64,000 nucleotides of DNA, from the IMG/VR virus record IMGVR_UViG_3300002461_001191, one strand, 5' to 3'. The notes under the pieces are model-generated. The model was given only the letters and a program-made list of their open reading frames with translations. It was not told the DNA's origin and did not search any database. This DNA is from a virus. Lineage: Duplodnaviria; Heunggongvirae; Uroviricota; Caudoviricetes. Positions 5,433-53,329 of the stretch are shown piece after piece. The translations under genes and the position numbers were made by a program. Every line of letters starts with the position of its first letter. Position 1 is the stretch's first letter.

Positions 5433-5864
5433 TTAGTGATTTGTTTGCTCTGGATACCCAAATATACTTTCATATGAAAGTGCCCTATGATGACTTTTAT
5501 ATCTGTATTGATCAAAATAAGATTTAAACTCATCTTCATTCATGGTTTTAAATCTTAAGTCTTCATTGACTTGTATAAATGCTCCCAAACCATAATGTAT
5601 AATAAAAACATTACCAGGTTTTAGTGCAATTTTAGGCACAAAATAAGAATAATTTTCATATGTAAATTCATGATGATTTTCTAAAAGTGTTTGCTTTGCT
5701 TGTTCTAGAATTGGTGCGTCTTCTGGATGAACTCTAATCTTGGTTCTTGAACTTAAAATCATATGTTCAATTTTAGTCCAATCATTTTCATGAAATGCTT
5801 CAACTCTGGCTCCAAGAAAATAAGCTATTCTGTAAATAGTTGGTAGTTGATTTATGCTGTTCAT
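5433..5864 (-). CDS. hypothetical protein
   Basis: 143 aa ORF. Confidence 0.4.
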   Translation of the reverse strand: MNSINQLPTIYRIAYFLGARVEAFHENDWTKIEHMILSSRTKIRVHPEDAPILEQAKQTLLENHHEFTYENYSYFVPKIALKPGNVFIIHYGLGAFIQVNEDLRFKTMNEDEFKSYFDQYRYKSHHRALSYESIFGYPEQTNH

Positions 5865-5952: not shown

Positions 5953-5982
5953 TTGACAACTCTACAATTGATATGCAATAAT
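5953..5982 (+). promoter_or_regulatory. candidate sigma70 promoter (TTGACA-N18-AATAAT) driving leader/tRNA array
   Basis: Consensus -35 TTGACA at 5953-5958; AT-rich -10 at 5977-5982. Confidence 0.4.
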
Positions 5983-6016
5983 ACAAGCATTGAGATTTAA
6001 TTTAAGGAATAATTCA

Positions 6017-6091
6017 ATGTCTTCACGTTCACAACAATTTGGTTTTTTTCAGTTTGGTCAGTTTGACCAAGCGGGGTGCCATTTTGTTTGA
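6017..6091 (+). CDS. leader peptide 1 (24 aa, MSSRSQQFGFFQFGQFDQAGCHFV), 6 Phe and 5 Gln codons
   Basis: AAGGA RBS 8 nt upstream; ORF ends 24 nt before terminator hairpin; leader 3' end (GGTGC, 6075-6079) is a copy of terminator 3' arm, so it can pair with the 5' arm as an antiterminator. Confidence 0.5.
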   Translation: MSSRSQQFGFFQFGQFDQAGCHFV

Positions 6092-6114
6092 TTAAGTAAG
6101 TATTTCAACAAAAA

Positions 6115-6141
6115 AGCACCTCTAAACAAGGTGCTTTTTTT
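6115..6141 (+). terminator. attenuator/intrinsic terminator copy 1 (AGCACC-tctaaacaa-GGTGCT + T7)
   Basis: 6-bp GC-rich stem, 9-nt loop, 7 T; same sequence at 6270-6297 and a variant at 14653-14679. Confidence 0.6.
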
Positions 6142-6172
6142 ATTGTTAGTTTTAATTTTATTAAGGATTTTT

Positions 6173-6247
6173 ATGATGTTAGTTTTGAATGTTTTTAGCC
6201 AGCAATTTTTTCAGTTCCAGTTTGGAGCTAGGTGTCCTATTGTGTAA
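6173..6247 (+). CDS. leader peptide 2 (24 aa, MMLVLNVFSQQFFQFQFGARCPIV), 6 Phe and 4 Gln codons
   Basis: AAGGA RBS 5 nt upstream; tandem duplicate of leader 1 module; AGGTG at 6230-6238 complementary to terminator 5' arm. Confidence 0.5.
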   Translation: MMLVLNVFSQQFFQFQFGARCPIV

Positions 6248-6269
6248 AAGTTTCGCAACATACTCAATA

Positions 6270-6297
6270 AGGCACCTCTAAACAAGGTGCTTTTTTT
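6270..6297 (+). terminator. attenuator/intrinsic terminator copy 2 (AGGCACC-tctaaacaa-GGTGCT + T7), 12 nt upstream of first tRNA
   Basis: Identical hairpin and loop to copy 1. Confidence 0.6.
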
Positions 6298-6309
6298 ATG
6301 GTTTTTTGC

Positions 6310-6382
6310 AGGGGATTAGTGTAATTGGTTAGCACATCGTCCTTTGAAGTCGAGAGTCTAGGTTCAAGTCCTGGGTCCCCCG
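6310..6382 (+). tRNA. tRNA-Gln(UUG), type a (no encoded CCA; A1.C72 and one U.U in anticodon stem)
   Basis: Acceptor AGGGGAT/GTCCCCC; U8A9; D-stem GTGT/GCAC; anticodon loop CTTTGAA; T-arm CTAGG-TTCAAGT-CCTGG. Confidence 0.55.
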
Positions 6383-6415
6383 CAAAAAATAATGAAAGGA
6401 AATTTAAAAGTTTAT

Positions 6416-6490
6416 TGGGGATAAATCGATTGGAGCAGATACTTGGCTTTGAACCAAGGTGAGTGGGTTCGATTCCCACATCCCCTGCCA
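6416..6490 (+). tRNA. tRNA-Gln(UUG), type b copy 1 (CCA encoded; U1.U72)
   Basis: Acceptor TGGGGAT/ATCCCCT; anticodon stem CTTGG/CCAAG; loop CTTTGAA; T-arm GTGGG-TTCGATT-CCCAC; 75 nt. Confidence 0.7.
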
Positions 6491-6496
6491 AAAAAT

Positions 6497-6572
6497 GGAC
6501 TTGTAGCTCAGTTGGTAGAGCAGCAGACTGAAAATCTGTGTGTCGGCAGTTCGATTCTGCCCAAGTCCACCA
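6497..6572 (+). tRNA. tRNA-Phe(GAA), type a (canonical, CCA encoded)
   Basis: GGACTTG-TA-GCTC-AGTTGGTA-GAGC; anticodon loop CTGAAAA; GGCAG-TTCGATT-CTGCC; CAAGTCC-A-CCA; close to E. coli tRNA-Phe. Confidence 0.9.
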
Positions 6573-6606
6573 GTTAGTTTTAGTTGTTTAATAGGATAGG
6601 TTTAAT

Positions 6607-6684
6607 GCCGCCTTGGTGTAAATTGGTAGAGCACAAAAGACTGAAAATCTTTGGGTCTCGGTTCGATTCCGAGGGGCGGCACCA
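6607..6684 (+). tRNA. tRNA-Phe(GAA), type b (divergent body, CCA encoded)
   Basis: Acceptor GCCGCCT/GGGCGGC; anticodon stem AAAGA/TCTTT; loop CTGAAAA; T-arm CTCGG-TTCGATT-CCGAG. Confidence 0.75.
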
Positions 6685-6718
6685 GGTTGTTTTGTTGAAA
6701 TTATATATGTGTTTTTAT

Positions 6719-6793
6719 TGGGGGTAAATCGATTGGAGCAGATACTTGGCTTTGAACCAAGGTGAGTGGGTTCGATTCCCACACCCCCTGCCA
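6719..6793 (+). tRNA. tRNA-Gln(UUG), type b copy 2 (CCA encoded; U1.U72)
   Basis: Near-identical to 6416-6490; acceptor pair 6:67 changed A-T to G-C on both strands (compensatory), which confirms the register. Confidence 0.7.
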
Positions 6794-6840
6794 ATCTTAA
6801 AATTAAGTATACAGGTAAGTATATTTAATTTTAAGATTAT
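6794..6840. repeat. 18-bp inverted repeat (ATCTTAAAATTAAGTATA / TATATTTAATTTTAAGAT) with 8-nt loop, filling the whole spacer between two tRNAs
   Basis: Reverse-complement arms with one G.U position; begins 1 nt after the CCA of the upstream tRNA and ends 1 nt before the next tRNA. Confidence 0.6.
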
Positions 6841-6916
6841 GCTGTTTTAGCTGATGTGGTCATAGCGCGTGGTTGAAGCCCATGAGAAGTTGGTTCGATT
6901 CCAACAGGCAGCACCA
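6841..6916 (+). tRNA. tRNA-Phe(GAA)-like, type c (G37, two G.U in acceptor stem; CCA encoded)
   Basis: Acceptor GCTGTTT/AGGCAGC; D-stem GCTG/TAGC; anticodon stem CGTGG/CCATG; loop TTGAAGC; T-arm GTTGG-TTCGATT-CCAAC; 76 nt. Confidence 0.5.
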
Positions 6917-6923
6917 GATTATT

Positions 6924-6978
6924 GGGTCGGTTTGTGGTAAACCTAGGAATGCGAGTTCGAGTCTCGTCCGATCCACCA
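6924..6978 (+). other. tRNA-like minihelix: acceptor stem + T-arm + CCA but only 20 nt where D and anticodon arms should be (truncated tRNA or remnant)
   Basis: GGGTCGG ... GCGAG-TTCGAGT-CTCGT-CCGATCC-A-CCA; 55 nt. Confidence 0.35.
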
Positions 6979-7000
6979 GTTGTTTTTTTAAGGGGTTAAT

Positions 7001-7168
7001 ATGAGCAAGCTAGAGAAAAAGAAAGAAAAATTAAAACAAAGAATTGCTGATCTTGAGTTTGAAATGAGGAATATACTTCAGAAGAAATCTCAAGGTGCAG
7101 CTATTAATATTCAAAACTATAACTCAAAGATTATGGATTTGAAAAAAGAGTTGAGTTCCATGAATTAA
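7001..7168 (+). CDS. small coiled-coil protein (55 aa) embedded in the tRNA array
   Basis: ATG 7001 preceded by AAGGGG; MSKLEKKKEKLKQRIADLEFEMRNILQKKSQGAAINIQNYNSKIMDLKKELSSMN; below the length cutoff of the ORF track. Confidence 0.3.
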   Translation: MSKLEKKKEKLKQRIADLEFEMRNILQKKSQGAAINIQNYNSKIMDLKKELSSMN

Positions 7169-7178
7169 TTTTTACAGT

Positions 7179-7253
7179 TGGCGCATAGTGTAATGGTCAG
7201 CACAATTGACTTTGAATCAGTTGGTTCCAGTTCGAATCTGGATGCTCCTGCCA
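7179..7253 (+). tRNA. tRNA-Gln(UUG), type a copy 2 (CCA encoded; U1.U72 and C4.U69 mismatches)
   Basis: TGGCGCA-TA-GTGT-AATGGTCA-GCAC; anticodon stem ATTGA/TCAGT; loop CTTTGAA; TCCAG-TTCGAAT-CTGGA; TGCTCCT-G-CCA. Confidence 0.55.
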
Positions 7254-9235: not shown

Positions 9236-9619
9236 TTAACGATTTGGTTTAGGTTTATCATCTTCATTGTTGATATTACTGCCTCTTCTGAGTCTATCAT
9301 TCATCTGTCCAATTGAAGCTGCTGTACTTTTAACCTTTTTGATGACATTGTTGTAGTCTTCATGGCTACCTATCCAAAACCATAGATATCCATGTTCACC
9401 TTCTGGTGTTGTTATTTTCTTCGCAAGTGCTCTATGTTTTCTACCTACTTGTGCACTGTATACCTCGTTATCTGCAATATTAAGAGGTTTAAACTCAACA
9501 GTATGCGGGTCTTTTTTCCATTTTTCAAAGCTATTTACTGCTGTATCTTGTATTTCTGGATTGAGTTTATGAAACAGTTTATCAAAGCTTTCAGTTTTTT
9601 TACTTATCGTCTTTTTCAT
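9236..9619 (-). CDS. RelE/ParE-superfamily type II toxin-like protein (with C-terminal extension)
   Basis: Family-typical layout: N-term helical region then beta core ...KPLNIADNEVYSAQVGRKHRALAKKI...YLWFWIGSHEDY. Confidence 0.45.
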   Translation of the reverse strand: MKKTISKKTESFDKLFHKLNPEIQDTAVNSFEKWKKDPHTVEFKPLNIADNEVYSAQVGRKHRALAKKITTPEGEHGYLWFWIGSHEDYNNVIKKVKSTAASIGQMNDRLRRGSNINNEDDKPKPNR

Positions 9620-9648
9620 TTATTTATTCATTAATAATTTTTATCTTT

Positions 9649-9828
9649 TTATCTTTTAATCTTTTTAGGGCTATCTGTATTAAAATCAGTTGTCTTACCT
9701 GTAGCAGCTTCAAAATCTGCATTTTTAAGTAAATGTTCAAGAGCTAATTTACCATCTTCTGATTCAAGCATGTCATCCCAAATTTGATTATCATTTTTTT
9801 CTTGTTTTTGATTGTTTTCTTTATTCAT
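9649..9828 (-). CDS. putative antitoxin partner (59 aa acidic protein upstream of toxin, same strand)
   Basis: Own translation: MNKENNQKQEKNDNQIWDDMLESEDGKLALEHLLKNADFEAATGKTTDFNTDSPKKIKR; 29-nt gap to toxin start. Confidence 0.3.
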   Translation of the reverse strand: MNKENNQKQEKNDNQIWDDMLESEDGKLALEHLLKNADFEAATGKTTDFNTDSPKKIKR

Positions 9829-9929
9829 AATTTAATTCCTTTGTATTATTTTCTCAAAATCAAAAGCTATTGTCAAAACTTGTTTTTTATATTATTTTTA
9901 ATATGTTGTTAAAAATGGAGTAAATAATT

Positions 9930-10355
9930 ATGGTTAGAAATCAAGAATTTGATGTTGTTTATAAAAATTGGATTAAATGGAATATTATTATTCCTTTTGT
10001 ATCTGCCATATTATTAATTGTTGTAGCATTTATAAGTGTATTTGCTTTAATGGCGTCTCAAATTAACAACATAGATTTCTTTTTTTATGAACATCTTCAT
10101 TATGCAGTTCTTTTGATTGTTGTGATGTTCTTAATTTTCGTCGGATCATTGTTTTTGCTTTATAAATACTTTAGAACAACTTGGGTTTTATTGAAATATA
10201 TGGATGATTTAGGAATTAAACCAATATTTGGCAAGAGCTTAGGATTGGTGGGGAATTTCGTTCTTTATTGTATAACTTCATTGTTTTTATTCATTATTCA
10301 TATTATATATATAATTGCTATATTTTTATCAGTAAGAAAATTTAATAAATTTTAA
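9930..10355 (+). CDS. hypothetical membrane protein
   Basis: 141 aa, multiple hydrophobic helices. Confidence 0.4.
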   Translation: MVRNQEFDVVYKNWIKWNIIIPFVSAILLIVVAFISVFALMASQINNIDFFFYEHLHYAVLLIVVMFLIFVGSLFLLYKYFRTTWVLLKYMDDLGIKPIFGKSLGLVGNFVLYCITSLFLFIIHIIYIIAIFLSVRKFNKF

Positions 10356-10406
10356 TAAACTTAGTGCTTTCGTGATACAATATTAAAGAAATTTCTAAAG
10401 GCTTTT

Positions 10407-12686
10407 ATGACAATTGCTCGTACTTGGGATGGGATTAATCTAATGAACTTTAAATTAGTTAATAAGAATAATATATTTAAAGAGGGTACTTTTGAAAATA
10501 TACTTGTGGAACAAGTAATCAAATTCTTCGAGCATGATTGTTACAATAGAGATACAGTAAAAGCTCCATTTTATGCTTCAGAGCATTATTTTTATGAAAA
10601 TATTCTTGCTTCAAGAATTCTAAAATATTTAAGTCAACATAAAATTGATATACCTATGGATATTACATTCAAGTCTCTTCTTGGACAAAAGGCTTGTTGG
10701 TATGCAAGATTGTCTGGTTGTATTGAAGCTAAAAAAATCACTGATGGAGTTTATCACGGATACAAACCTAATGTTCCAGTTTTCGGATTATATCTTGAGT
10801 CTGGTATCATTGATTTGCTCAAAGATTCTGATTTTATCAATAAATTAATTAAAACAAGTCCTACAAAAGATGGATTAAAACATTTAATTGAAGTAGCAAA
10901 GCTATCTTCTGCATTTAGACAACTATTGAGAATGCCAACAATTGAGTTTGATCCTAAAAATGAAAGTTCAATTTATCATAAAAGTAAATATAAAAATTTA
11001 AAAGTTAACAATATAAATATAAAAAATTATCAATCTTTTAATTTTCAAACATGGCCAGAAATAGAAAACATAGAGGTTGCAGCAACAACTAGAGGTATAT
11101 ATCATCATTTGGGAGATGATGTTGCTTTTATGTTAAGTGCAATGGAGTATGGTGATTTTTGTATATTGGGATCAGATGAGTTTGGTGATATTATACCTAT
11201 GTATTATTATTCTTATAATCTAATGAATACTGTTAGCTTTGATGACAATAGAATTTTTAGTTGGGAAGATTTTGATTATATTTATGGTGTACCAAGAATT
11301 AATGCTCTTTATCCATCTGCTAATAATGTTATATTTAAATATGCAAGTGAAGATAAAGATCAGTGCCTTATTAATAAAAAAGAAAATTCTGCTTTAGCTG
11401 GTGCTTTTTGGAATAATTCTGTATTTAATCAGTTATCAGGAAGAAATATAGCAACTAAAAGTTTGAAGGAATTATCTTTAGAGCTTAAACAATGTGTTGA
11501 AAAAGCAATTGAAAATAGTCAATTTGTAAAAAATAATGAAAATTTAGAAAAGTTTTTTTTAGAAAAATATTTTCATAACAAGTGCTTAGATCTCAATAAT
11601 CAGGATGAAGTAGATTTTTTAAACATTGCTAATTCTTTTATTAGAAAAAATTACTCTTTCTTTATAAAAACTGTTGCACAAAAAGTTAACTGTATGGTTA
11701 TTAATCCTGAAGAAAAAACACAGCTTGCTTTCTTTAAAAAATCAGGTGAAAGCAAAGCACCAGCGTACCTTGATTTGCTATATTTATTAAAGTTTTTTAT
11801 GACTCAATCAAAAGAAAATAAAGAGTTGGGATTGACTGTTGAGTTTTATCAAAAAGCTTTAATCAATTTTTTGTTAGGAGATAATCCTAAAGGATTTTGG
11901 GAGAGAGAATATATTCACTTATATAATTATTGGTTAAATTTAGATAAAAAATCATTTGTTGTATCTGATTTAGTTGAGATGAATAATGAGTATAGAATAT
12001 TTATTGTTAATGGTAAGATTGCTACAGGAACGCCATGCTACAGAAATACAACTCCATTTAATGCTTGGACAAAAGGAAGATTAGACCCAAGGTTATGTGA
12101 TGGACATAATGCAACAGAAATTAAATTGGATAATAGTACAAGAAATATTGCAGCAAAATATGGTCGTTTTGCTCGTAAGTTTTTGTCTTTAATGAACAAG
12201 GAATATCCAGAAATAAAAAGTTATGTTTTGGATGTTTGTATAAGTTATGATAAAGATAATAATATGGTAGTGATGCCAATAGAAGTTAATTCTATTAATA
12301 TGTCTGGAGCATATCAGGCTGATATGAGAAAAATATGTGCTGTGGTTGCTGGAAAGAAGTCAAACATATCAAGTTTAAATAATGTTTTTAATTTAGATTC
12401 GTTAATGTCTAATCCTATAGATTTTATTATCAATAAAAGTATATATTATGGTGCTGGAGATGATTCAATTAAAGGTGTTATAGAAGATGTATATGAAATA
12501 CAATCTGATATCATACAGGAAAAAATTAATCAAATAGATCAGAGAAATCCAGATAATTTAACAGATTCAGATGAGAATTATGATGATACTGAAACTAATG
12601 AGTTCCTTGATTTTATTGATAGTGTCAATAAACCAACAATTATTGATTTAGATGTAGATACTACAAATAAAAATGAAAAAATGTGA
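10407..12686 (+). CDS. large protein with C-terminal ATP-grasp-like domain
   Basis: EYRIFIVNGKIATGT ... VLDVCISYDKDNNMVVMPIEVNSINMSGAY resembles ATP-grasp strand motifs; paralogous to 29007-29918. Confidence 0.5.
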   Translation: MTIARTWDGINLMNFKLVNKNNIFKEGTFENILVEQVIKFFEHDCYNRDTVKAPFYASEHYFYENILASRILKYLSQHKIDIPMDITFKSLLGQKACWYARLSGCIEAKKITDGVYHGYKPNVPVFGLYLESGIIDLLKDSDFINKLIKTSPTKDGLKHLIEVAKLSSAFRQLLRMPTIEFDPKNESSIYHKSKYKNLKVNNINIKNYQSFNFQTWPEIENIEVAATTRGIYHHLGDDVAFMLSAMEYGDFCILGSDEFGDIIPMYYYSYNLMNTVSFDDNRIFSWEDFDYIYGVPRINALYPSANNVIFKYASEDKDQCLINKKENSALAGAFWNNSVFNQLSGRNIATKSLKELSLELKQCVEKAIENSQFVKNNENLEKFFLEKYFHNKCLDLNNQDEVDFLNIANSFIRKNYSFFIKTVAQKVNCMVINPEEKTQLAFFKKSGESKAPAYLDLLYLLKFFMTQSKENKELGLTVEFYQKALINFLLGDNPKGFWEREYIHLYNYWLNLDKKSFVVSDLVEMNNEYRIFIVNGKIATGTPCYRNTTPFNAWTKGRLDPRLCDGHNATEIKLDNSTRNIAAKYGRFARKFLSLMNKEYPEIKSYVLDVCISYDKDNNMVVMPIEVNSINMSGAYQADMRKICAVVAGKKSNISSLNNVFNLDSLMSNPIDFIINKSIYYGAGDDSIKGVIEDVYEIQSDIIQEKINQIDQRNPDNLTDSDENYDDTETNEFLDFIDSVNKPTIIDLDVDTTNKNEKM

Positions 12687-12835
12687 TATAATCCTTTATT
12701 AATTTAAAATGAAGGGCTATTATGGCTGGATCTAAATTTTTTATGTTGTTTGATGACTTGGCAACAATCCTTGATGATGTTGCTGCAATGAGCAAGTTGG
12801 CAACAAAAAAGACTGCTGGTATTGTAGGAGATGAT

Positions 12836-13348
12836 TTAGCATTGAATGCAAATCAGGTTGTTGGTGTATCTGCAAATCGTGGCTGCAATTTTGTTGTTAT
12901 TGAGTATTTTTGTAATTGATTTAGCATAATCTATGGATACCTGTAGATTGCTTGATGATCTTTTATTGTCAAAACTCAACTCAATCATAGGTGCAAGGTT
13001 AACATCAAGACACAGCCTTTTTAGTTCATTTGCAACAAAGTCAGCTTTATCCTGAGTGTATTTATCTTTCCAGTTTTGTTTGTGGTTGGGCAGTTTAAAG
13101 TGTTTAATTCTATAGACAACATCGTTTTCCTGATCTGTCATCATAAGTGCACTGGGGTAGAGTTTTTTAAGTTCACACATGGCACTTTCGGTTTTATCAA
13201 AATCTCTTTTGAAAAATATATAGCCACCAGACTTTTGATATTGGTGTTGCTCTGCTGTTGTAATGAAAAATTGTTCAAAATTGATGGCAGATTGAGCAAC
13301 TGGTGAGAATAAGCATATGCAGGATAAAAAAAAGTTTTTTTTGAACAT
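12836..13348 (-). CDS. secreted hypothetical protein
   Basis: 170 aa; signal peptide [21 protein letters not shown]. Confidence 0.4.
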
Positions 13349-13422
13349 GATGTTTTTTATTGAAAAAAAGAGAAAAAATCAAGATGCTTCTATTTATGAT
13401 GATTTTTTGCTAAAATTGAGGT

Positions 13423-14481
13423 ATGAATACTATTATGACAAATACAGATAAGGTTAAACAATTTGAAAAAAATTTTTATTCAGTGGTTAAAGAAAACAAT
13501 TTAGAGTTGCTGGAGTTTTTCTTGCTAAATTCTGATTTCCCTAAATATTCTCAATCATACAAACAAAGTGTGATGGACTATCTGGTATACAATGGTCACA
13601 AGTTCCCTAATTTTGATTTACCTTTGTGGTCTTTGACAAATGACTATATGGGTGTCAATGGTAATATACATGAGAATGCAGATAGACCTTTGAGACTTGC
13701 AGCTTCATTGAATGTGCCTTATGCAAAGTTTTTGTTGACATCAAATAAACTTAAAGAGCATGCCAATATAAATGAAACCAATGATGGCTCTAGTGCTATT
13801 TTAAATGCTATTCAAAGTGAAAATTTGGATTTTGTTAAGTTCTTACTGACAAGTAAAGAGTTAAAAATTCATGCAAAGCTCAATATATCAGATAAGCCAT
13901 TTAATGATCCGTTGTGTAAAGCATGTGAGGGTAAGAATAACGATATTTTAGAGTATTTGTTGAGTGAAGAGGCGTATGTCAATCAAGATGGATTTAGTCC
14001 TGTTGAGAATTTGCAAAGATTTCAAAATGAAACTTTTAAGAAATTAATTCGTCAAGATAACAAAGATATGATTCAGAAGATTTTACAATCTGACATTTTG
14101 GACATAAAAGAAAATGGTTATGATTTTTTATGTCAAGCAATTACTATAGACGCAAGAAAAACAACTGATTATCTATCTGATTTTTTAAATATACCTGTTG
14201 ATTTAATGAACATGAGATATAAGGATAAAAGTATCTTCTTCCACATTGCTCACACCGCCCACAATTCCAGAATACCGAAACATTCTTTTTTGCATGAGAT
14301 ATTGGAAAATCCCAACTTTTCAATTTCCTATGAAGAAATAGATGATATAGATAGCCTATACCATTATGGTGAAATTCAGACTGAAAAACTAATGGCTTAC
14401 ATAGAGAGGTTTGAAAAGATTCACAATATGGACAAGGTTTTACAATCAAAAGAACAATTACATAAAAAGCTTAAATTATAA
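13423..14481 (+). CDS. ankyrin-repeat-like protein
   Basis: Repeated ~33-aa units with ..PL.LAAS.N...KFLLTS / SAILNAIQS.NLDFVKFLLTS pattern. Confidence 0.35.
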   Translation: MNTIMTNTDKVKQFEKNFYSVVKENNLELLEFFLLNSDFPKYSQSYKQSVMDYLVYNGHKFPNFDLPLWSLTNDYMGVNGNIHENADRPLRLAASLNVPYAKFLLTSNKLKEHANINETNDGSSAILNAIQSENLDFVKFLLTSKELKIHAKLNISDKPFNDPLCKACEGKNNDILEYLLSEEAYVNQDGFSPVENLQRFQNETFKKLIRQDNKDMIQKILQSDILDIKENGYDFLCQAITIDARKTTDYLSDFLNIPVDLMNMRYKDKSIFFHIAHTAHNSRIPKHSFLHEILENPNFSISYEEIDDIDSLYHYGEIQTEKLMAYIERFEKIHNMDKVLQSKEQLHKKLKL

Positions 14482-14497
14482 GATTTTTTTTATCTGC

Positions 14498-14527
14498 TTG
14501 ACTTTTAAAATAAATTCAAGTTATAAT
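14498..14527 (+). promoter_or_regulatory. candidate sigma70 promoter TTGACT-N18-TATAAT upstream of aspS leader
   Basis: Consensus hexamers at 14498-14503 and 14522-14527. Confidence 0.45.
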
Positions 14528-14550
14528 GAAATTATATTAAGCTTTTAAAA

Positions 14551-14628
14551 ATGTTTATTCAAATTTTCTTCAACGATAATAACAATAATGATGCTGCACA
14601 GAGTGCTGGCAGATTGTTGTTTGTCTAA
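14551..14628 (+). CDS. leader peptide (25 aa, MFIQIFFNDNNNNDAAQSAGRLLFV) with 5 Asn + 2 Asp codons in a row
   Basis: ORF ends 25 nt before terminator; its 3' part CAGAGTGCT (14599-14607) is an exact copy of the terminator 3' arm, so AGAGTGCT can pair with the 5' arm AGCACTCT as an antiterminator. Confidence 0.5.
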   Translation: MFIQIFFNDNNNNDAAQSAGRLLFV

Positions 14629-14652
14629 AAGAAAAGAATCAACAAACTCAAA

Positions 14653-14679
14653 AGCACTCTAAAACAGAGTGCTTTTTTT
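14653..14679 (+). terminator. attenuator/intrinsic terminator (AGCACTC-taaaaca-GAGTGCT + T7) 30 nt upstream of aspS start
   Basis: Same family as 6115-6141 and 6270-6297 (AAAAGCAC.CTAAA.CA..GTGCTTTTTTTAT). Confidence 0.6.
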
Positions 14680-14708
14680 ATTGTCAAAAATTTTTAAGGA
14701 GATATCAA

Positions 14709-15983
14709 ATGAGAACATTAGTCAAAGAGTTGAAAGAGAAAATTGGTCAAGAGGTTAAGTTGTATTTAACTTTAGATGTTATGCGTAACCAGAAACATTT
14801 GCAGTTCATTCTAGCTCATGACAAGTCTGGTGCCATTCAGTTGGTTCTCTCCAAATCAAAAGTTCAAAACAATGAGGAAGTTGGACAGTTATTGCAAGGT
14901 TCAACTTTAATTGCTATAGGGGAAGTTGTCTCTGCAACCCAAAGTAAAACATTTGGGTTGGAAATACAGGTCAGCAGTATTGAGATAATGTCAAAAGCTG
15001 AAGCTTTTCCCATTACAGAAGAATCAAGTATTGACTTGAGGTTTGACTACCGTGCTGTTGATTTGAAATTCCCCAAACAACAGTTAATGTTAAAGCTTCG
15101 TAGTGCATTTGAGCAAGGGTGTCGTGAATATCTTTTATCAAAAGAGTTTACAGAAATTCATACTGCTAAATTAATGTCTAGAGCCTCAGAGAGTGGTAGC
15201 CAGGTATTCAAAGTGGATTATTTTGATAAAAAAGCTTTTTTGAGTCAGAGTCCTCAGGAAGGAAAAGAATTACATGTATCTAGCGGATTAGAGGGTGTTT
15301 TTGAAGTTGGTAGTGTATTCAGAGCAGAAGAGTCAAGATCATCTCGCCACTTAACTGAATTTATCGGTATAGATGTGGAGTTTGCTTGGTGTTTTGAAGT
15401 AGAAGAAGTCATGAAGATAGAAGAAGAGATGTTGTGCTATGCTTTTGCAAAGTTAGAACCATTTAAAGAAGAAGTGAAATCACTTTACAATCTTGAGTTA
15501 ACTACGAAGCCTACTGTAAAATACATGACTTTAGAACAAGCCAAGGTTATATTAAAAGAAAAATCTGGTATGTCTTTAGGAAGAGATCAGGATTTGCCAG
15601 ATGAAGGTGAAAGAATGCTATATGAAATTTTAGGTTTTGATTTGATTTTTGTATCAAACTATCCGATTGCAAAAAGGCCATTCTACCATATGTGGGAAAA
15701 AGAAAAGGGAACTACAAAAAGTTTTGACTTGATTTTCAAAGGTATAGAAATCACAAGTGGTGCTATCAGAGAGCATAGGCATGATATTTTTGCACAACAA
15801 GTAGTTCAAAAGGGTGTAAGTCTTGATTCAGTAGATAACTATTTGAAGGTGTTCAAATACGGATGTCCTCCACATGGTGGATTTGGATTAGGTGTAGAAA
15901 GGGTCATTGCCAAACTACTTGGATTGAGCAGTGTCAAGGAAGCTTCTGCTATGCCAAGAGACCCTGATAGGTTAATGCCGTGA
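14709..15983 (+). CDS. aspS: aspartate--tRNA ligase, archaeal/eukaryal-type (short, no GAD insertion)
   Basis: Class IIb: N-terminal OB fold; QSPQ flipping-loop motif; motif 2 FRAEESRSSRHLTEF; motif 3 GGFGLGVERV; C-terminal PRDPDRLMP; 424 aa. Confidence 0.8.
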   Translation: MRTLVKELKEKIGQEVKLYLTLDVMRNQKHLQFILAHDKSGAIQLVLSKSKVQNNEEVGQLLQGSTLIAIGEVVSATQSKTFGLEIQVSSIEIMSKAEAFPITEESSIDLRFDYRAVDLKFPKQQLMLKLRSAFEQGCREYLLSKEFTEIHTAKLMSRASESGSQVFKVDYFDKKAFLSQSPQEGKELHVSSGLEGVFEVGSVFRAEESRSSRHLTEFIGIDVEFAWCFEVEEVMKIEEEMLCYAFAKLEPFKEEVKSLYNLELTTKPTVKYMTLEQAKVILKEKSGMSLGRDQDLPDEGERMLYEILGFDLIFVSNYPIAKRPFYHMWEKEKGTTKSFDLIFKGIEITSGAIREHRHDIFAQQVVQKGVSLDSVDNYLKVFKYGCPPHGGFGLGVERVIAKLLGLSSVKEASAMPRDPDRLMP

Positions 15984-15996
15984 AAACTAAAATTAA

Positions 15997-17973
15997 TTAA
16001 ATGAGGTAAAGAAATTTGTGAATATTTTCACTTATTTCTTTAGTTCTTGAGTTTATGTCATCAATAGTAAAAAAATCTTGTTTTTGACATATTAATTCTA
16101 TTTGTTTTAATTGGTGTTTTTGTTTTTCATAAACATATTGTTTTTTCTTGATAAAAGTATTATTTTTTGCCTCTTCATTTGAAGTATCATCAAGTAAAAT
16201 AAAGTTTCCAAGTTGATTTAATTCACTTTTATTTAATTCTTTATATTTAGGATTAATTTGTATTAATTTTTTCTGCACTAATGGAATAATATGTTCAATT
16301 TGAATATTTTCTTTAATAGTTTGTTTAAAAATTGCTTGTTTTAATTGGTTAAAATCAACTTGAGATAGTGATAATTCATATAAATATAGAATTCCTTTTC
16401 TAACTTGTAAAAAATTATACTCTTTCCATTTTTCGTATATTTTGGTTTCATCTATTGGATTAAAAAATAGTTTTGTGCTAATAAATTTGATTATATCGTT
16501 ATTGGTTTTAACCTCTTGTAATAAGTCTGGGAAAACAGATATATTCATAATATTGTTGTTTATATAGTTGTTGTTTGCTCCATTGTAAACACCCATAAAA
16601 TAAATTTTAATAATATCTTGTAGTAGTTTTATAAATTTATTTTTTTCTATTTGTTCATTATTTTTAGGGTATAGTTCTAATAAAACAGGAGTGTAAAGAT
16701 CTAATAAGTCTAAGTGATCTAATATATATAAATAGATAGATGCCTCATGAAAGGGATCAGTAAAACCTTTAATTTGTTTATATATTATTTCAAATTGCTC
16801 TAATTGTTTGTAGAAATTTAATGTTTCGTTATTACTCCAAACGGTAGGATTGAGAACTGAATTGTTAAGGAAAGAAGTAAGTTTTTCTATGCTTACTATT
16901 TTCTCGTTTTTGAAAATGCTTGTATTTGTTATTTTAAAAACAGACATAACATATCTATCAAGATTGTCTTCACCAAGATTTGTTTTCAATTGTTTAAAAA
17001 AATCATTAACTTTTTGACCATTATCTGTTCCGTCTTCTGCTAATATAAAGGTATTTTTAATTAAATCGATAGGCTTTAGTGTTTTCCCTGTATTATTTTT
17101 ATTTTGAAATATAATTGATGGATTAATTTTTGAACTAAATACTTCTATAGTAATAAGAGTATTAAAAAAACTATCTATAACGTTACTAAAATCTTTTAAA
17201 GATTCCTTTGAAATGTACAATTTATGGTTGTAATCATATACTATGTTTAATTTTTTATGAAAAAAATGAAATATACAAACTAAAGCTTCTAGTGTATGTT
17301 TAAAAGATTGTATATCTTTTTTAATATCCTTATTTTTATAATATAATATATTTAGTATTTCTGTATATGTTTGTTTCTTGTTTTTATTTTGACATAATAT
17401 ATTAAATATGTTTTCTCTGTTTTTTATGAGAGAGCAATAAAATTCATTATATTGAGTTGAGTTTATAAATTTAAGCTTTGATACTTCTTCACCGTTTTTG
17501 TTGTTAACTAAAACATTATTTAAAGAGTTTAGTTTTATGTGTTCTTGTTTAAATTTAGAGTAAATCTCTTTTTTCCTTTTATCAATTGATAATGTTAAGG
17601 TCTTCTCAAAATTTTCTTCATTTAAAGATATTGTTTTTTGAAATAGAACCTCTAAAAATAGTGCTATCAAGCTCAATGTTGTTGTTCTTTGTTGTCCATC
17701 CATTATAGAAACTAAATTTTCTTTAACTGGTTGTAAGATTAGACTGCCAATTTCTGCATTAATGTATTCATTAGAAAAGTCATTTGATAAGTTCACATTA
17801 AAAATAGTGTCTAAAAGTTTATGAACATGCTTATGTTCCCATTCATACTCTCTTTGGTAGTACTGCATAACAAATTCTGGATTTTCTAAAGAAAATGCTT
17901 CTCCTGTCATGTAGTCTTTAATTTTCCTGACTTCAGCTTGTTTAATGTTTTTTTCATCTGTTAAAGATAGCAT
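15997..17973 (-). CDS. GmrSD-family type IV restriction endonuclease (DUF262 + DUF1524)
   Basis: N-terminal DUF262 with DGQQRTTTL motif; C-terminal His-Me finger IEHIIPL ... GNFILLDDTSNEEAKN. Confidence 0.75.
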   Translation of the reverse strand: MLSLTDEKNIKQAEVRKIKDYMTGEAFSLENPEFVMQYYQREYEWEHKHVHKLLDTIFNVNLSNDFSNEYINAEIGSLILQPVKENLVSIMDGQQRTTTLSLIALFLEVLFQKTISLNEENFEKTLTLSIDKRKKEIYSKFKQEHIKLNSLNNVLVNNKNGEEVSKLKFINSTQYNEFYCSLIKNRENIFNILCQNKNKKQTYTEILNILYYKNKDIKKDIQSFKHTLEALVCIFHFFHKKLNIVYDYNHKLYISKESLKDFSNVIDSFFNTLITIEVFSSKINPSIIFQNKNNTGKTLKPIDLIKNTFILAEDGTDNGQKVNDFFKQLKTNLGEDNLDRYVMSVFKITNTSIFKNEKIVSIEKLTSFLNNSVLNPTVWSNNETLNFYKQLEQFEIIYKQIKGFTDPFHEASIYLYILDHLDLLDLYTPVLLELYPKNNEQIEKNKFIKLLQDIIKIYFMGVYNGANNNYINNNIMNISVFPDLLQEVKTNNDIIKFISTKLFFNPIDETKIYEKWKEYNFLQVRKGILYLYELSLSQVDFNQLKQAIFKQTIKENIQIEHIIPLVQKKLIQINPKYKELNKSELNQLGNFILLDDTSNEEAKNNTFIKKKQYVYEKQKHQLKQIELICQKQDFFTIDDINSRTKEISENIHKFLYLI

Positions 17974-18153
17974 TTTTCACCTTATATTTTTTTATTAATA
18001 TAAAAAATAAATTAAAAATCAATATAAAGTTAAATTATTCTATTTTCTCCAATCACAGATGGAAATACATCATATTAGTGATCAATTGAAAAAAGTCCAT
18101 TAAATCATTTAAAAAAATCTTTTTTTAAATTTTTCTTTTGGTAAGATAAATAG

Positions 18154-19005
18154 ATGAAATTATTTAAAGATAAATTGGAGTTTATGCAGTTTTGTATTCA
18201 ACTAAACAGCAGTGAAGTATTTGATTTTTATTTAAGTAAAAAATCTGATTTTCTATCAATAGAAAACGAAGAGTTTTTAGAAATGGTAGCAACAAAAATA
18301 AAGGGGCTTTCATTAGATAAAGATTATGCTAAATTTTGTGCAGACGTTTTAGATCAAAAGCCAAGGTTTTCAGAAAAAATTTATGAAAAAATCCTAGATA
18401 AAAACCAAAAACAAGCAAAAAAATTTTTTCTATCTCTTCTAAATTCCAGAGAATATGATTTTTTATTTAATTTATTAAGCAAGAAAGATTATTTATTTTT
18501 AGAAATATTAGAGCCTGAAATTTTCAAGAGTATACCAGACAATTATATAGTAAACCATTTTTGCTCTAAAAATGAAAATAAAGTATTGCATGAAACACAT
18601 TTTAATTTAATTGGTAAAATAATTGATAAATATACTGAAAACAGGTTAGATATTGCAAATGAAAAAGCAATGAGTTTAATTTTAAATCTTCAAGAAAAGG
18701 GAGTATCTATTAAAGGTGTTAACTTATTGCAATTATTTATGTTGTCTAAAACAAGAGATTATTTGCTACAAAACGAAGAAATGTTAAAAGATTTGTATGA
18801 AAATAGAGAATGGAAGAAAAATCACAATCTTTTTCAAACCTATAGGTATTATGATGACTGGGTCAATAGAGATAATCAGTTTTATATATCTATGATAGAG
18901 CAAAAAATAGAAAAAACTGTGGCTTGTCAATATCTTGATATAAGTATGAAAAAAGGTTCAGTTGATGATTTTGTGTTGGTTAATAAGAGTAGAGTAAAGA
19001 TTTAA
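18154..19005 (+). CDS. hypothetical protein
   Basis: 283 aa ORF, divergent from GmrSD gene. Confidence 0.4.
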   Translation: MKLFKDKLEFMQFCIQLNSSEVFDFYLSKKSDFLSIENEEFLEMVATKIKGLSLDKDYAKFCADVLDQKPRFSEKIYEKILDKNQKQAKKFFLSLLNSREYDFLFNLLSKKDYLFLEILEPEIFKSIPDNYIVNHFCSKNENKVLHETHFNLIGKIIDKYTENRLDIANEKAMSLILNLQEKGVSIKGVNLLQLFMLSKTRDYLLQNEEMLKDLYENREWKKNHNLFQTYRYYDDWVNRDNQFYISMIEQKIEKTVACQYLDISMKKGSVDDFVLVNKSRVKI

Positions 19006-39081: not shown

Positions 39082-39104
39082 TCTGTTGACATTTTTAAAT
39101 ATTG
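39076..39104 (+). promoter_or_regulatory. candidate sigma70 promoter TTGACA-N17-TACAAT upstream of proS leader region
   Basis: Consensus hexamers. Confidence 0.4.
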
Positions 39105-39121
39105 AGAATACAATCAAGGTT

Positions 39122-39169
39122 ATGAAAAAATTATTCAATAAATCATTTCGACCTCTATTGCCATCTTAA
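39122..39169 (+). CDS. possible leader peptide (15 aa, MKKLFNKSFRPLLPS) upstream of proS
   Basis: Short ORF; its last codons lie in hairpin CCATC-ttaaaa-GGTGG, a near-copy of the downstream terminator hairpin; only 2 Pro codons and a poorly spaced RBS. Confidence 0.25.
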   Translation: MKKLFNKSFRPLLPS

Positions 39170-39211
39170 AAGGTGGTGAGTATTTTCTTTTTCTAAAAAT
39201 TATTAAGAAAA

Positions 39212-39240
39212 TTTAAGCCATCTTTCAAAGGTGGCTTTTT
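39212..39240 (+). terminator. intrinsic terminator/attenuator 44 nt upstream of proS (AGCCATC-tttcaaa-GGTGGCT + T6)
   Basis: Hairpin followed by TTTTTTATTTT. Confidence 0.5.
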
Positions 39241-39283
39241 TATTTTCGCTTCAATAATCAATTTTTAATTTAAAGGAAATATC

Positions 39284-40402
39284 ATGAAATGGTCTAATTT
39301 ATTTTTTTATAACAATCACTTCGAGAAAAACAATCAAACGTTTGATTTGGTTCAACTCATGGAAAAATCTTGTATGTTTTCTCAAGAGTCAGCAGGAATT
39401 TATTCATCTATGTCTTTAGGTGTTATTTTAGAGGAAAAACTTCAAAAAATCATTGACAAACATATGGGGAAAGCCGGATTTTCAAAAGTCAGGTTAAGTA
39501 TATTGCAAGATGGTGATCTTTGGGAGAAAACAGGTAGAATGGATTTGTATGGAGAAGAACTTTTTAAGGTTAGAAACAGAAAAAATAAGGTTTTTTGCTT
39601 AAGTGCAACTGCTGAAGAGTCTGTTACAAACTTATACATGAAGTTCTATCACAGACAAAAAGCAAATTGTAATATATATCAAATCAATACAAAGTTCAGA
39701 GATGAAATGAGAGCCAGAAGCGGTTTAATCAGAGCAAAAGAATTCATCATGAAAGACGCCTATTCTTTTGGTTCTGAAGAAAGTATTAATAATGTTTATC
39801 AACTCATGATGGACACATATAAGAATATTTTAGATGAGTTAGGTTTAATATATTATATAAAGCAAGCGGATACTGGAGAAATAGGTGGGTCAATCTCACA
39901 TGAATTTTGTGTCAGCAGTGACTTGTGTGAAAACAATGAGTTGGAAGTTGCACATATATTCAATTTAGGAACCAAGTACAGTGAAAAGTTTGGTCTGTTA
40001 GATGATTCTGGAAAAAATGTTCATATGGCTTGTTTCGGTATAGGTGTATCAAGATTACTGATGGCTCTTTTGTCAAGCAAGAGGGACAACTTAGGATTCT
40101 GGGGGGATAGTGTATTTAATACATTTGATTATGTAATAACTGCCGTTGATTATGAGAAAAACAATGAAGTAAAAACAAGATCAGATAACTTATACAATCA
40201 TTTATCCTCAAGAGGTTACAGTGTCTTATTGGATGATAGAAGTTGTAATGCTGGGAAAAAGCTTCATGACTCTGAGTTGATATGTATTCAAAATAGGATA
40301 GTTGTGAGCACAAGTGCACTAAAACAATCCAAATATGAATTGTTAAGAAGAAAGAGCATGGAGAAAGAGTTTTTAACATATGACAATCTTCTTGAGTTGT
40401 AA
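39284..40402 (+). CDS. proS: proline--tRNA ligase, minimal form (no editing insertion, 372 aa)
   Basis: Class IIa: motif 2 FRDEMRARSGLIRAKEFIMKDAYSF; motif 3 GCFGIGVSRLLMALL; C-terminal anticodon-binding domain. Confidence 0.6.
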   Translation: MKWSNLFFYNNHFEKNNQTFDLVQLMEKSCMFSQESAGIYSSMSLGVILEEKLQKIIDKHMGKAGFSKVRLSILQDGDLWEKTGRMDLYGEELFKVRNRKNKVFCLSATAEESVTNLYMKFYHRQKANCNIYQINTKFRDEMRARSGLIRAKEFIMKDAYSFGSEESINNVYQLMMDTYKNILDELGLIYYIKQADTGEIGGSISHEFCVSSDLCENNELEVAHIFNLGTKYSEKFGLLDDSGKNVHMACFGIGVSRLLMALLSSKRDNLGFWGDSVFNTFDYVITAVDYEKNNEVKTRSDNLYNHLSSRGYSVLLDDRSCNAGKKLHDSELICIQNRIVVSTSALKQSKYELLRRKSMEKEFLTYDNLLEL

Positions 40403-52120: not shown

Positions 52121-53329
52121 ATGAGTAAAGTTATTACCTGTTCATTCTGCGGAAAAAGAGAAAACGAAGTCAAACAAATTATTTCCAATTCTCAAGATTT
52201 GAATCCAGTCTTTATTTGTAACGAGTGTATTGACGGAGCCAAGAACTTGTTGTCAGAAGAGTCAGGAACAACAAAAGTTCTTGAGCATGCTGATGGCATT
52301 CCAACTCCAAAAGAGATTGTAGATTTTCTTGATCAATATGTAGTAGGTCAGGACAAGGCAAAAAAGACATTGGCAATTGCTGTTCACAATCATTATAAAA
52401 GAATCAAGTATGGGCTGTCCAATGAGGTAGAGCTTGGAAAAAGCAATATTTTGATGATTGGTGCAACTGGAACAGGTAAAACATTTTTGGCTCAAAGTAT
52501 TGCAAAGATGTTGAATGTGCCGTTTGCAATTTGTGACGCTACTTCACTCACTCAAGCAGGTTATGTTGGTGATGACGTGGAGACAATTCTACAAAAACTT
52601 CTCTTGAGTGCCAATGGTGATGTTGAGAAGGCACAGCAAGGTATTATTTTCATTGATGAAATTGACAAAATTGCAAAGAAAGACGCTGGCACTTCCATTA
52701 CCAGAGATGTGGGTGGTGAAGGTGTACAGCAATCCTTGCTTAAAATTCTTGAGGGAACACAATCCAGAATTCCATTGACTGGCAGTAGAAAGCACCCAGG
52801 AACCAATATTGAATATATTGATACAACCAATATTTTGTTCATTTGTGGTGGTGCATTTGTGGGACTTGATAAGTTGATGGAGAAAAGCAAAACTGATACC
52901 AGTATTGGTTTTGTGAAATACAATACAAAGTCAGTCAACCCTGAAGAGATTGCATTTGCTGAGAAGTTCAAGCAAAAAATCAATCCTGAGCATTTGTCTC
53001 AGTTTGGTCTTATTCCAGAGTTCATTGGTCGCTTACCTGTTATCTGTGAACTATCAGAACTTGATGTGCCTGCATTAGAAAAAATCTTGGTAGATCCCAA
53101 GAACTCTTTGGTCAAGCAATATCAATATCTTTTCTCTTTGGAAGAAGTTGATTTGGTATTCTCACCAAGTGCAGTAAGGCAAATTGCAAATGTTGCTTTT
53201 ATGCAAAAAACAGGTGCTAGAGGACTCAAGAGTATCATGGAAGAAATTCTCTCAGATTTGATGTTCAATCTGCCTGGATTGAAAGGTCAAAAAGTTGAAA
53301 TTTCTGACATATACAATATCAAGGTTTAA
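52121..53329 (+). CDS. clpX: ATP-dependent Clp protease ATP-binding subunit ClpX
   Basis: C4 zinc finger CSFCGK ... CNEC; Walker A GATGTGKT; collinear ClpX similarity. Confidence 0.92.

Follow-up and report, generated by a model that had tools for sequence, protein, structure and literature searches.

Predicted leader-peptide attenuators ahead of a Gln/Phe tRNA array and an aspartyl-tRNA synthetase gene in a 64-kb stretch of bacterial DNA

We analysed a 64,000-nucleotide (nt) stretch of DNA (IMG/VR record IMGVR_UViG_3300002461_001191, hereafter the window) in which three similar hairpins, T1, T2 and T3, precede genes of the translation apparatus. T1 and T2 stand in tandem ahead of an array of tRNA genes for Gln and Phe, and T3 stands ahead of a gene for a non-discriminating aspartyl-tRNA synthetase (AspRS). 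Very probably, each of these hairpins serves as the intrinsic terminator (segments 3:4) of a transcription attenuator of the leader-peptide kind, operated by the ribosome. The anatomy of the leaders, the matching of their codons to the genes downstream, their conservation across genomes and the compensatory changes in their helices are directly visible in the sequences. The main content of the finding is what these attenuators control, that is, diverged tRNA arrays whose specificities are spelled out in the leaders, the non-discriminating AspRS, the amidotransferase genes gatCAB and a prolyl-tRNA synthetase (ProRS), and not a shared hairpin.

Ahead of the tRNA array, a sigma-70-type promoter (5953-5982, plus strand; TTGACA, 18 nt, AATAAT, with a TG extension, matching 11 of 12 consensus positions) leads with no intervening gene to a first leader open reading frame (ORF), QF1; the upstream gene (5433-5864) is on the opposite strand. 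QF1 (6017-6091, plus strand; MSSRSQQFGFFQFGQFDQAGCHFV) has 24 codons, five for Gln and six for Phe, and eight residues of its richest ten are Q or F against a background of 9.3% (p=5e-6; simulation with the amino-acid usage of the window, as for the other codon runs in this DNA). It is followed by a second leader ORF, QF2 (6173-6247, plus strand; MMLVLNVFSQQFFQFQFGARCPIV), in which nine of the best ten residues are Q or F (p=5e-6). In both, the Shine-Dalgarno sequence AAGGA (6004-6008 and 6163-6167, respectively) lies 5-9 nt ahead of the ATG, and an antiterminator strand inside the ORF copies the 3' arm of the terminator that follows (GGGGTGCC at 6073-6080, plus strand, in QF1, where it pairs with GCACCTC at 6116-6122, and AGGTGTCC at 6230-6237 in QF2). 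QF1 also contains a hairpin of its own in the minimum free energy fold (6052-6072, plus strand; GTTTGGTCA / TGACCAAGC), made by the F-G-Q-F-D-Q codons, with counterparts in QF2 (6213-6229) and in the orthologous leader of a related locus (L132); it is probably a pause or anti-antiterminator element, as judged from the predicted fold.

The array itself (6310-7253, plus strand) comprises four tRNA-Gln(UUG) genes, at 6310, 6416, 6719 and 7179, and three tRNA-Phe(GAA) genes, at 6497, 6607 and 6841, and holds no other specificities (ARAGORN; Rfam tRNA model 48-73 bits). Only 12 nt separate the end of T2 from the first of these genes, and thus there is no room for a separate promoter. The copies are only 60-73% identical to one another, except for those at 6416 and 6719 (97%). 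Single variants are kept between genomes, the tRNA at 6607 being 91% identical to that at 7166 of L132. The first tRNA-Gln (6310-6383) lacks an encoded CCA, which the remaining six have, and a degenerate tRNA-like stretch without an ARAGORN call (about 6917-6980) and a 55-codon ORF (7001-7168; MSKLEKKKEKLKQRIADLEF...) lie within the array ahead of the last tRNA-Gln.

The AspRS leader has a comparable layout. Behind a sigma-70-type promoter (14498-14527, plus strand; TTGACT, 18 nt, TATAAT, 11 of 12 consensus positions), the leader ORF (14551-14628, plus strand; MFIQIFFNDNNNNDAAQSAGRLLFV) carries the run NDNNNND, encoded by Asn and Asp codons at 14572-14592 (p=5e-4). The run is followed by segment 1 (GCTGCAC, 14593-14599) and by segment 2, the antiterminator strand AGAGTGCT (14600-14607), and in an outer helix the Asn codons are paired with ATTGTTGTT. 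The gene downstream (14709-15983, plus strand) encodes a non-discriminating AspRS of archaeal type, an aspartate--tRNA(Asn) ligase of 424 amino acids (NCBIfam NF003483 at 401.6 bits, cutoff 353; Pfam tRNA-synt_2). The mixture of Asn and Asp codons in the leader thus agrees with an enzyme whose substrates include tRNA-Asp as well as tRNA-Asn.

Sequence reading and a terminator scan place the three hairpins where the initial annotation of this DNA had put them, with borders off by 1-2 nt. T1 (6113-6141, plus strand) reads AAAGCACCT CTAAACA AGGTGCTTT followed by a T-run (stem-loop 6113-6137, T-run to 6141), T2 (6269-6297, plus strand) reads AAGGCACCT CTAAACA AGGTGCTTT followed by a T-run (stem-loop 6269-6293, T-run to 6297) and T3 (14651-14679, plus strand) reads AAAGCACTCT AAAAC AGAGTGCTTT followed by a T-run (stem-loop 14651-14675, T-run to 14679). 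All three are strong terminators with folding z-scores of -4.3 to -4.4, and T1 and T3 are called as terminators on both strands. They had been described as near-identical, loop included. Aligned at the T-run, T1 and T2 agree at 35 of 38 positions, including 28 contiguous identical nt (GCACCTCTAAACAAGGTGCTTTTTTTAT), T1 and T3 at 30 of 38 and T2 and T3 at 27 of 38, so that the likeness stands but the shared loop does not: T1 and T2 have a GC core of 6 base pairs (bp) and the 7-nt loop CTAAACA, whereas T3 has a core of 7 bp and the 5-nt loop AAAAC. The consensus string that had been proposed for all three needs correction. Its common part, CTAAA.CA, spans stem and loop, no single register fits all three hairpins, and the string as given has only two matches at three or fewer mismatches. 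By contrast, the relaxed motif GCAC-N(3-15)-GTGC-Y-TTTT picks out T1, T2 and T3 as its only sites in the window, with four matches (the reverse strand of T1 being counted) against 0.08 expected from shuffles, and the stems of the remaining terminators of the window are all different. T1 and T2 also proved, as claimed, to belong to tandem duplicates 156 nt apart (units 5986-6141 and 6142-6297), which are alike even when the hairpin is left out (p=0.0015); the QF2 unit is a tandem duplicate of the QF1 unit, comprising the whole attenuator with its Q/F leader. Finally, a copy of the 3' arm does lie inside each preceding mini-ORF, in QF1 and QF2 as the strands given above and in the Asp leader as CAGAGTGCT (14599-14607), a 9-nt exact copy of 14665-14673.

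To follow the leaders beyond the window, AspRS homologues were traced to their contigs and the flanks of these loci were also read. The AspRS leader was found in all 12 related loci examined; it keeps its orthologous position across genomes whose AspRS are 64-86% identical, and the Asn/Asp run is kept while the other residues of the peptide vary. Overall, the amino-acid bias of the leaders strongly tracks the gene downstream, as the initial annotation had implied. In the window, Q/F leaders precede tRNA-Gln and tRNA-Phe and the N/D leader precedes the non-discriminating AspRS; in the relatives, Ser leaders stand ahead of tRNA-Ser, a leader of F, R, H, D and M ahead of tRNAs of just these specificities, and an N leader ahead of gatCAB. 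Such cognate codon runs recur in six gene families.

For example, arrays of three to five tRNA-Ser genes (GCU, UGA, GGA) occur in L007 (5024-5790, minus strand), L134, L135 and L136, and ahead of them lie a promoter, a leader that reads MFKV(S/T)FSSSSSSSSSSMSF... and then a GCAC-core terminator, AAAAGCACTCA-(A/G)AAA-TGAGTGCTTTTTT. Ten consecutive codons of this leader specify Ser, with UCN and AGY codons mixed (p=5e-6, simulation). In L132, the Phe/Gln array has one Q/F leader only, orthologous to QF1, and a further array at 17560-18678 encodes tRNAs for Phe, Met, Asp, Arg, His, His, Asp and Arg. The leader of this second array, MLNFSRHDRHMHDTKSLVGEIVFLRK (MLNFSRHDRHMHD..., MLNFSRHDRHMHDTKS...; F-R-H-D-R-H-M-H-D), has nine of ten consecutive codons cognate to the array (p=5e-5, simulation); its terminator has an unrelated stem (CCCTACCAA/TTGGTAGGG), and here too the ORF contains a copy of the 3' arm.

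A motif search of the fetched loci uncovered an Asn leader (MRQHSINNNNPYCLCVVGFLS, NNNN) with a GGCACC/GGTGCC terminator ahead of gatC-gatA-gatB (L178, 3280-6937), in which GatC was called from a weak Pfam hit (E=0.009) together with gene context. This leader is homologous to the AspRS leader of the type found in L180 (local score 34 against 14.9±2.4, p<=2e-4), and thus attenuators have been copied ahead of other operons in this clade. As read from these sequences, the gatCAB leader and the non-discriminating AspRS may form an Asn-sensing regulon that serves the indirect route to Asn-tRNA. The most distant AspRS locus, L179 (9843-11272), is from Pandoraea communis (GCA_902459745.1, 63% GC), where the gene again has an AT-rich Asn leader and a terminator (AAAGGCACTCA..TGAGTGCCTTTTTTT). 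This is an apparent case of horizontal transfer of the AspRS gene along with its attenuator; the leader is still AT-rich in this GC-rich genome, and therefore gene and attenuator would seem to travel as a unit. The Pandoraea AspRS, which carries the NCBI name lysyl-tRNA synthetase, adjoins urease and peptide-transport genes on a betaproteobacterial chromosome.

A fourth attenuator in the window (39086-39241, plus strand) has a different stem. It consists of a promoter (39086-39114), a leader ORF (39122-39169; MKKLFNKSFRPLLPS), a 1:2 hairpin with repeated segments (39158-39179; CCATCTT/AAGGTGG) and a terminator (39215-39241; AAGCCATCTT TCA AAGGTGGCTT) whose stem, GCCATCTT/AAGGTGGC, is unlike those of T1-T3. 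The gene behind it (39284-40402, plus strand) encodes a short ProRS of 372 amino acids without the editing insertion. The Pro runs are weak in each leader taken singly (p 0.01-0.1), and the motif R-P..P is kept in three genomes. Orthologues of the ProRS at 52-57% identity (L181, L182) have leaders that keep both this motif and the four-segment design with the pairing segments all replaced, by GCCCCC/GGTGGGGC/CCCCACC/GGTGGG in one and by TGGCC/GGCCA twice in the other. The ProRS leaders show four co-varying segments built on three unrelated stems.

We propose that these elements work in the following way. The sigma-70 promoter would drive a leader ORF of 24-25 codons, and segment 2, the copy of the terminator 3' arm near the 3' end of the ORF, would pair with segment 3 and block the terminator. 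When the cognate aminoacyl-tRNA is short, a ribosome would stall on the codon run and leave segment 2 free to form the antiterminator, and RNA polymerase would read through; when translation continues, the ribosome would cover segment 2 and the terminator would form. In the Asp type, segment 1 would re-pair with segment 2 once the ribosome has moved on. At 5953-6297, two Gln/Phe-codon units in tandem would gate an array that holds only Gln and Phe tRNAs, and expression of the array would therefore be fed back from its own charged products. Two terminators in series should multiply termination, with less basal read-through and a sharper response as the expected result. At 14498-14679, the Asn/Asp leader would gate the non-discriminating AspRS, the first step of the indirect route to Asn-tRNA(Asn).

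The switch that this scheme needs was seen in ribosome-position scans. The ribosome was modelled as an unpaired footprint from -15 to +11 around the A-site, on a transcript ended before the terminator 3' arm, and the capture probability of the terminator 5' arm by upstream sequence was computed codon by codon. In QF1, for instance, capture amounts to 98-100% as long as the A-site is no further than F16, and to 17-46% past it. In all 15 leaders, capture is 70-100% with the A-site at or before the last regulatory codon and falls to 2-66% within 0-3 codons past it; the regulatory codons are therefore the last predicted stall positions that leave the antiterminator strand free. The gap between stop codon and stem is 16-25 nt in 14 of the 15. 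Among six further leaders, the switch is clear for the ProRS leader of L181 and the AspRS leader of L178, shallow for the ProRS leader of L182 and flat for L179. Computed with a fixed definition of segment 3, the profiles of the L179, L180 and gatCAB leaders are flat because in these leaders the antiterminator pairs with a CCAAAGG flank, and the scans of these three were not counted as evidence. Without a ribosome, most of nine Asp-type leaders lean to termination (L132 and L137 are predicted to read through by default), whereas read-through is the predicted default of the Q/F, Ser, Pro and five-amino-acid types unless a ribosome covers segment 2.

The helices are conserved across nine aligned AspRS leaders. 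Pairing reaches 100% in the terminator, with two compensatory pairs, and the observed covariation was reached in 0 of 500 shuffles; the antiterminator is paired at 88%, against 30-54% in slid controls, and the 1:2 helix at 84%, against 31-53%. The 1:2 helix joins the Asn codons AAC-AAU-AAU to AUUGUUGUU, alongside an inner GCAC/GUGC helix, and the conserved R-L-F tail of the peptide is explained by the pairing of AUUGUUGUU with these codons.

Several points weigh against attenuation. Translation of the leaders, stalling and read-through are steps that we infer, as are timing and pausing, and the folding scan is an equilibrium stand-in for a kinetic decision. For several Asp-type leaders, the scan has the antiterminator coming back when the ribosome is on the last codon or the stop, so that timing has to be assumed. 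Covariation is slight in the antiterminator and 1:2 helices, with one pair each, and in the window's own Asp leader the Shine-Dalgarno sequence is weak (AAG), though clear in the orthologues. The physiological signal, shortage of tRNA or of amino acid, is also ambiguous, because more tRNA transcription would be no help in true amino-acid starvation. The poor Shine-Dalgarno sequence would equally suit hairpins that are constitutive terminators or insulators behind untranslated chance ORFs, with other promoters or leaky read-through serving the genes and no sensing at all; chance short ORFs are common in AT-rich DNA, and regulation is deduced here from sequence and folding only. We nevertheless regard this as very unlikely. 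Cognate codon runs reach p=5e-6 to 5e-4 and recur across six gene families, and 15 of 15 leaders place their last regulatory codon consistently with respect to the antiterminator strand; frame and codon run are retained while the flanking peptide varies, and the 12 nt between T2 and the first tRNA leave no space for a promoter. Small ORFs paired with tRNA or synthetase-like genes do occur in tRNA-dependent peptide pathways, and the ORFs described here adjoin tRNA genes and extra synthetase-like genes. They might accordingly encode functional small peptides, for example precursors modified via the adjacent tRNAs or synthetases, with hairpins that simply end small genes. This idea deserves almost no credence: no adjacent modifying enzymes are present, RNA pairing with the Asn codons accounts for the conserved C-termini (e.g., G-R-L-F), amino-acid content follows the downstream tRNA specificity exactly, and every hairpin 5' arm has an alternative partner in the ORF. 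A RiPP-like product (a peptide made on the ribosome and modified after translation) was rejected on the same grounds of RNA pairing, cognate content and missing modifying enzymes. The caveat raised in the initial annotation, that the motif could be a generic intergenic repeat without ties to codon-biased ORFs, fares no better. The hairpin is palindromic with A-run and T-run flanks, as in repeat elements and bidirectional terminators, and could belong to the repetitive extragenic palindrome (REP), bacterial interspersed mosaic element (BIME) or miniature inverted-repeat transposable element (MITE) type, lying near short ORFs by chance. However, its three sites in 64 kb all fall in leaders, each between a promoter with a codon-biased mini-ORF and a matching gene, and the orthologous positions are kept across genomes. 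No transposase or phage domains were found in neighbouring ORFs, few of which were scanned. Viral contigs contained no related sequence: the Q/F-leader pattern gave two chance matches only, in 61% GC contigs without tRNAs, the Ser-leader 29-mer gave zero, and there was no sign of phage-borne arrays. A generic repeat is therefore extremely improbable, and leader-peptide attenuation remains our preferred explanation.

Whether the three hairpins represent one reused cassette is a separate matter. The initial annotation had proposed a modular, duplicated cassette that acquired different leaders; tandem duplication of a whole attenuator is borne out for T1 and T2, whereas it is not established that T3 and T1/T2 are copies with swapped leaders. 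The likeness of T3 to T1/T2 most likely means that the attenuators of the tRNA arrays and those of AspRS/gatCAB belong to a single family with a GCAC/GTGC core, and common descent of T3 and T1/T2 is probable, although not proven. Alternatively, the resemblance could be convergence within the narrow sequence space that an AT-rich genome leaves for an A-run, a short GC-rich stem, an A-rich loop and a T-run, with no reuse beyond the local tandem duplication, which we consider a real possibility that falls somewhat short of likely. In a census of 59 distinct hairpin terminators from about 280 kb of DNA of the clade, the core occurs in 13 of 16 attenuator terminators but in only 3 of 43 ordinary ones (p=6e-8), or, counted by independent family, in 4 of 6 against 3 of 43 (p=0.002; 3 of 5, p=0.01, in a variant count), an enrichment that argues for a family, as do the different stems of all the other terminators of the window. 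Attenuator duplication is moreover documented twice in the clade, in the QF1/QF2 tandem and in the Asn leader found at both AspRS and gatCAB; neither case involves a change of specificity like that between Q/F and Asp. Common descent is weakened by several observations. Three ordinary gene-end terminators of the clade share the core. Outside the hairpin, the likeness of the QF2 and Asp spacers is marginal (p=0.003, uncorrected, the best of 45 pairs). The AspRS attenuator is an old unit whose own orthologues extend to Pandoraea, with free variation of inner stem and loop among them; unrelated stems are used by the ProRS and multi-amino-acid attenuators. As a cross-phylum control, reference genomes (596 Gb) were scanned for GCACTC-N(4-8)-GAGTGC-Y-TTTTTT, and the pattern was found at at least 120 loci in many phyla, with none of the clade among the matches listed; stems of this type are thus ordinary terminators in many lineages. 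One of these, in a metagenome-assembled genome of Ferruginibacter (Bacteroidota; L043, 5615-5640), has a hairpin equal to T3 exactly, loop included (GCACTCTAAAACAGAGTGCTTTTTTT), and both it and L097 match T3 at 33 of 38 positions, above the share of T1. The Ferruginibacter hairpin illustrates that short terminator sequences can arise repeatedly through convergence. Those matches, however, were drawn from 596 Gb and the three sites from a 64-kb window.

In the two genomes that were compared, the window and L132, the Q/F and AspRS terminators resemble each other within a genome more than they resemble their orthologues in the other. Those of the window share AGCAC..., the loop ...TAAA(A)CA and the tail TTTTTTTATTG, and those of L132 (7651-7672 and 8825-8846) share GGCACC-GCAA/AAAA-GGTGCC. 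This hints at concerted evolution or at a lineage-specific optimum.

The proposed design has well-known counterparts. In Escherichia coli, the Phe-rich leader peptide pheM and an intrinsic terminator precede pheST, and ribosome stalling controls the synthetase gene. The AspRS and ProRS leaders follow the same logic with no detectable sequence relationship; they differ in that the non-discriminating AspRS would be sensed mainly via Asn codons, the ProRS is a short one, and tRNA genes and gatCAB would also be under such control. With the classical attenuators trpL, hisL, leuL, thrL and pheL (RF00513, RF00514, RF00512, RF00506 and RF01859, respectively), the leaders share a promoter, a short ORF with regulatory codons, 1:2, 2:3 and 3:4 helices and a terminator, and the Asp-type leader has all four segments. 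In contrast to the classical cases, the targets are parts of the translation apparatus (tRNAs, synthetases and an amidotransferase) and not biosynthetic enzymes, some leaders would sense two to five amino acids at once in agreement with a mixed tRNA array, and the Q/F, Ser and Pro types are predicted to read through by default without a ribosome. At gathering thresholds, Rfam finds only tRNAs in the window and no curated leader family. The Phe_leader model (RF01859) scores at best 27.4, 30.1 and 35.0 bits against a threshold of 55, in alignments carried by the terminator, and the T-box riboswitch model has no match at its gathering threshold nor up to E=10. T-box riboswitches of Firmicutes and Actinobacteria bind uncharged tRNA directly, without any need for translation, and switch between terminator and antiterminator on synthetase genes. 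They couple synthetase expression to the charging state of one specific tRNA, in functional parallel to the leaders proposed here, whose sensor would be a translating ribosome.

For tRNA arrays, the closest comparison is the L-array (trn operon) of Anabaena sp. PCC 7120, which is supernumerary, expressed at a low level and induced by impaired translation (Santamaria-Gomez et al. 2021, PMC8421152; TrcR, PMC10272220). That array answers general translational stress through a repressor acting on direct repeats in the promoter (PMC8421152; PMC10272220). The arrays described here are likewise supernumerary, with diverged tRNAs as in Anabaena, where the array copies have diverged from the housekeeping ones; they differ in being short and restricted to one to five amino acids, and in their predicted codon-specific leader-peptide sensor. 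The word stem "attenuat" does not appear in the Anabaena array paper, according to which the means by which tRNA genes are differentially regulated "remain largely unknown" (PMC8421152, a 2021 study). Naville and Gautheret (2010) described similar 5' terminators ahead of non-orthologous genes as "mobile attenuators" that can "hop", as well as His leader peptides ahead of hisS paralogues (PMC2965389). Their mobile attenuators derive from insertion-sequence or prophage terminators, whereas no insertion sequence remnants were seen here among the few neighbouring ORFs scanned and the leaders are matched to their targets. We found no report of leader-peptide attenuation of tRNA genes in the literature searched, the coverage of which is incomplete, and an earlier description elsewhere is possible.

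If correct, these predictions would extend textbook attenuation of the trp/his type to tRNA genes, with the charged tRNA sensed on the leader in the same codons. The leaders would be composable for one, two or five amino acids to fit a mixed array. This would make a directly testable system for tRNA homeostasis, and would offer natural parts for amino-acid-specific or tRNA-specific sensors. The order promoter, codon-run mini-ORF, terminator and tRNA gives a search rule for more cases. Beyond the tRNA arrays, the candidate Asn-sensing regulon of AspRS and gatCAB, and an AspRS gene apparently carried with its leader into Pandoraea, would add to the significance of the system. On balance, we lean slightly towards the broader view that a clade of uncultivated, AT-rich, probably host-associated bacteria runs a translation-supply regulon from one expandable attenuator family that includes codon-specific control of tRNA genes. 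In such a regulon, the codon run of every leader would be fitted to the tRNA array, synthetase genes or gatCAB downstream, the ribosome would signal the aminoacyl-tRNA in short supply, and transcription of just the matching tRNAs would follow, a form of differential tRNA gene regulation that would be new. The diverged array tRNAs may then be inducible back-ups, for example when housekeeping tRNAs are depleted or cleaved.

The window itself is a piece of bacterial chromosome of about 32% GC, present in metagenome assemblies, with genes for MnmG, ClpX, RseP, nicotinate phosphoribosyltransferase and an L,D-transpeptidase. Searches with its ClpX, AspRS and ProRS matched metagenomic proteins almost exclusively. 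The ClpX (52121-53329) is 86%, then at most 68% identical to its nearest metagenomic relatives and about 55% identical to named bacteria; judged by this gene, a fast-evolving or deep lineage is suggested. The presence of DUF1631 and ankyrin proteins, and of an IcmW domain in relatives, is suggestive of a gammaproteobacterium that lives with a host, for which a Legionellales-like label is not established. Between the tRNA array and AspRS, and just beyond, the region 9236-17973 has the look of an accessory island. It includes an ORF at 9236-9619 whose counterpart in a matching contig (L001) has a weak ParE-like hit, a 759-amino-acid protein with an R2K ATP-grasp domain (10407-12686), an ankyrin-repeat protein (13423-14481) and a GmrSD-type restriction endonuclease (15997-17973), and most of its other ORFs are without a Pfam match.

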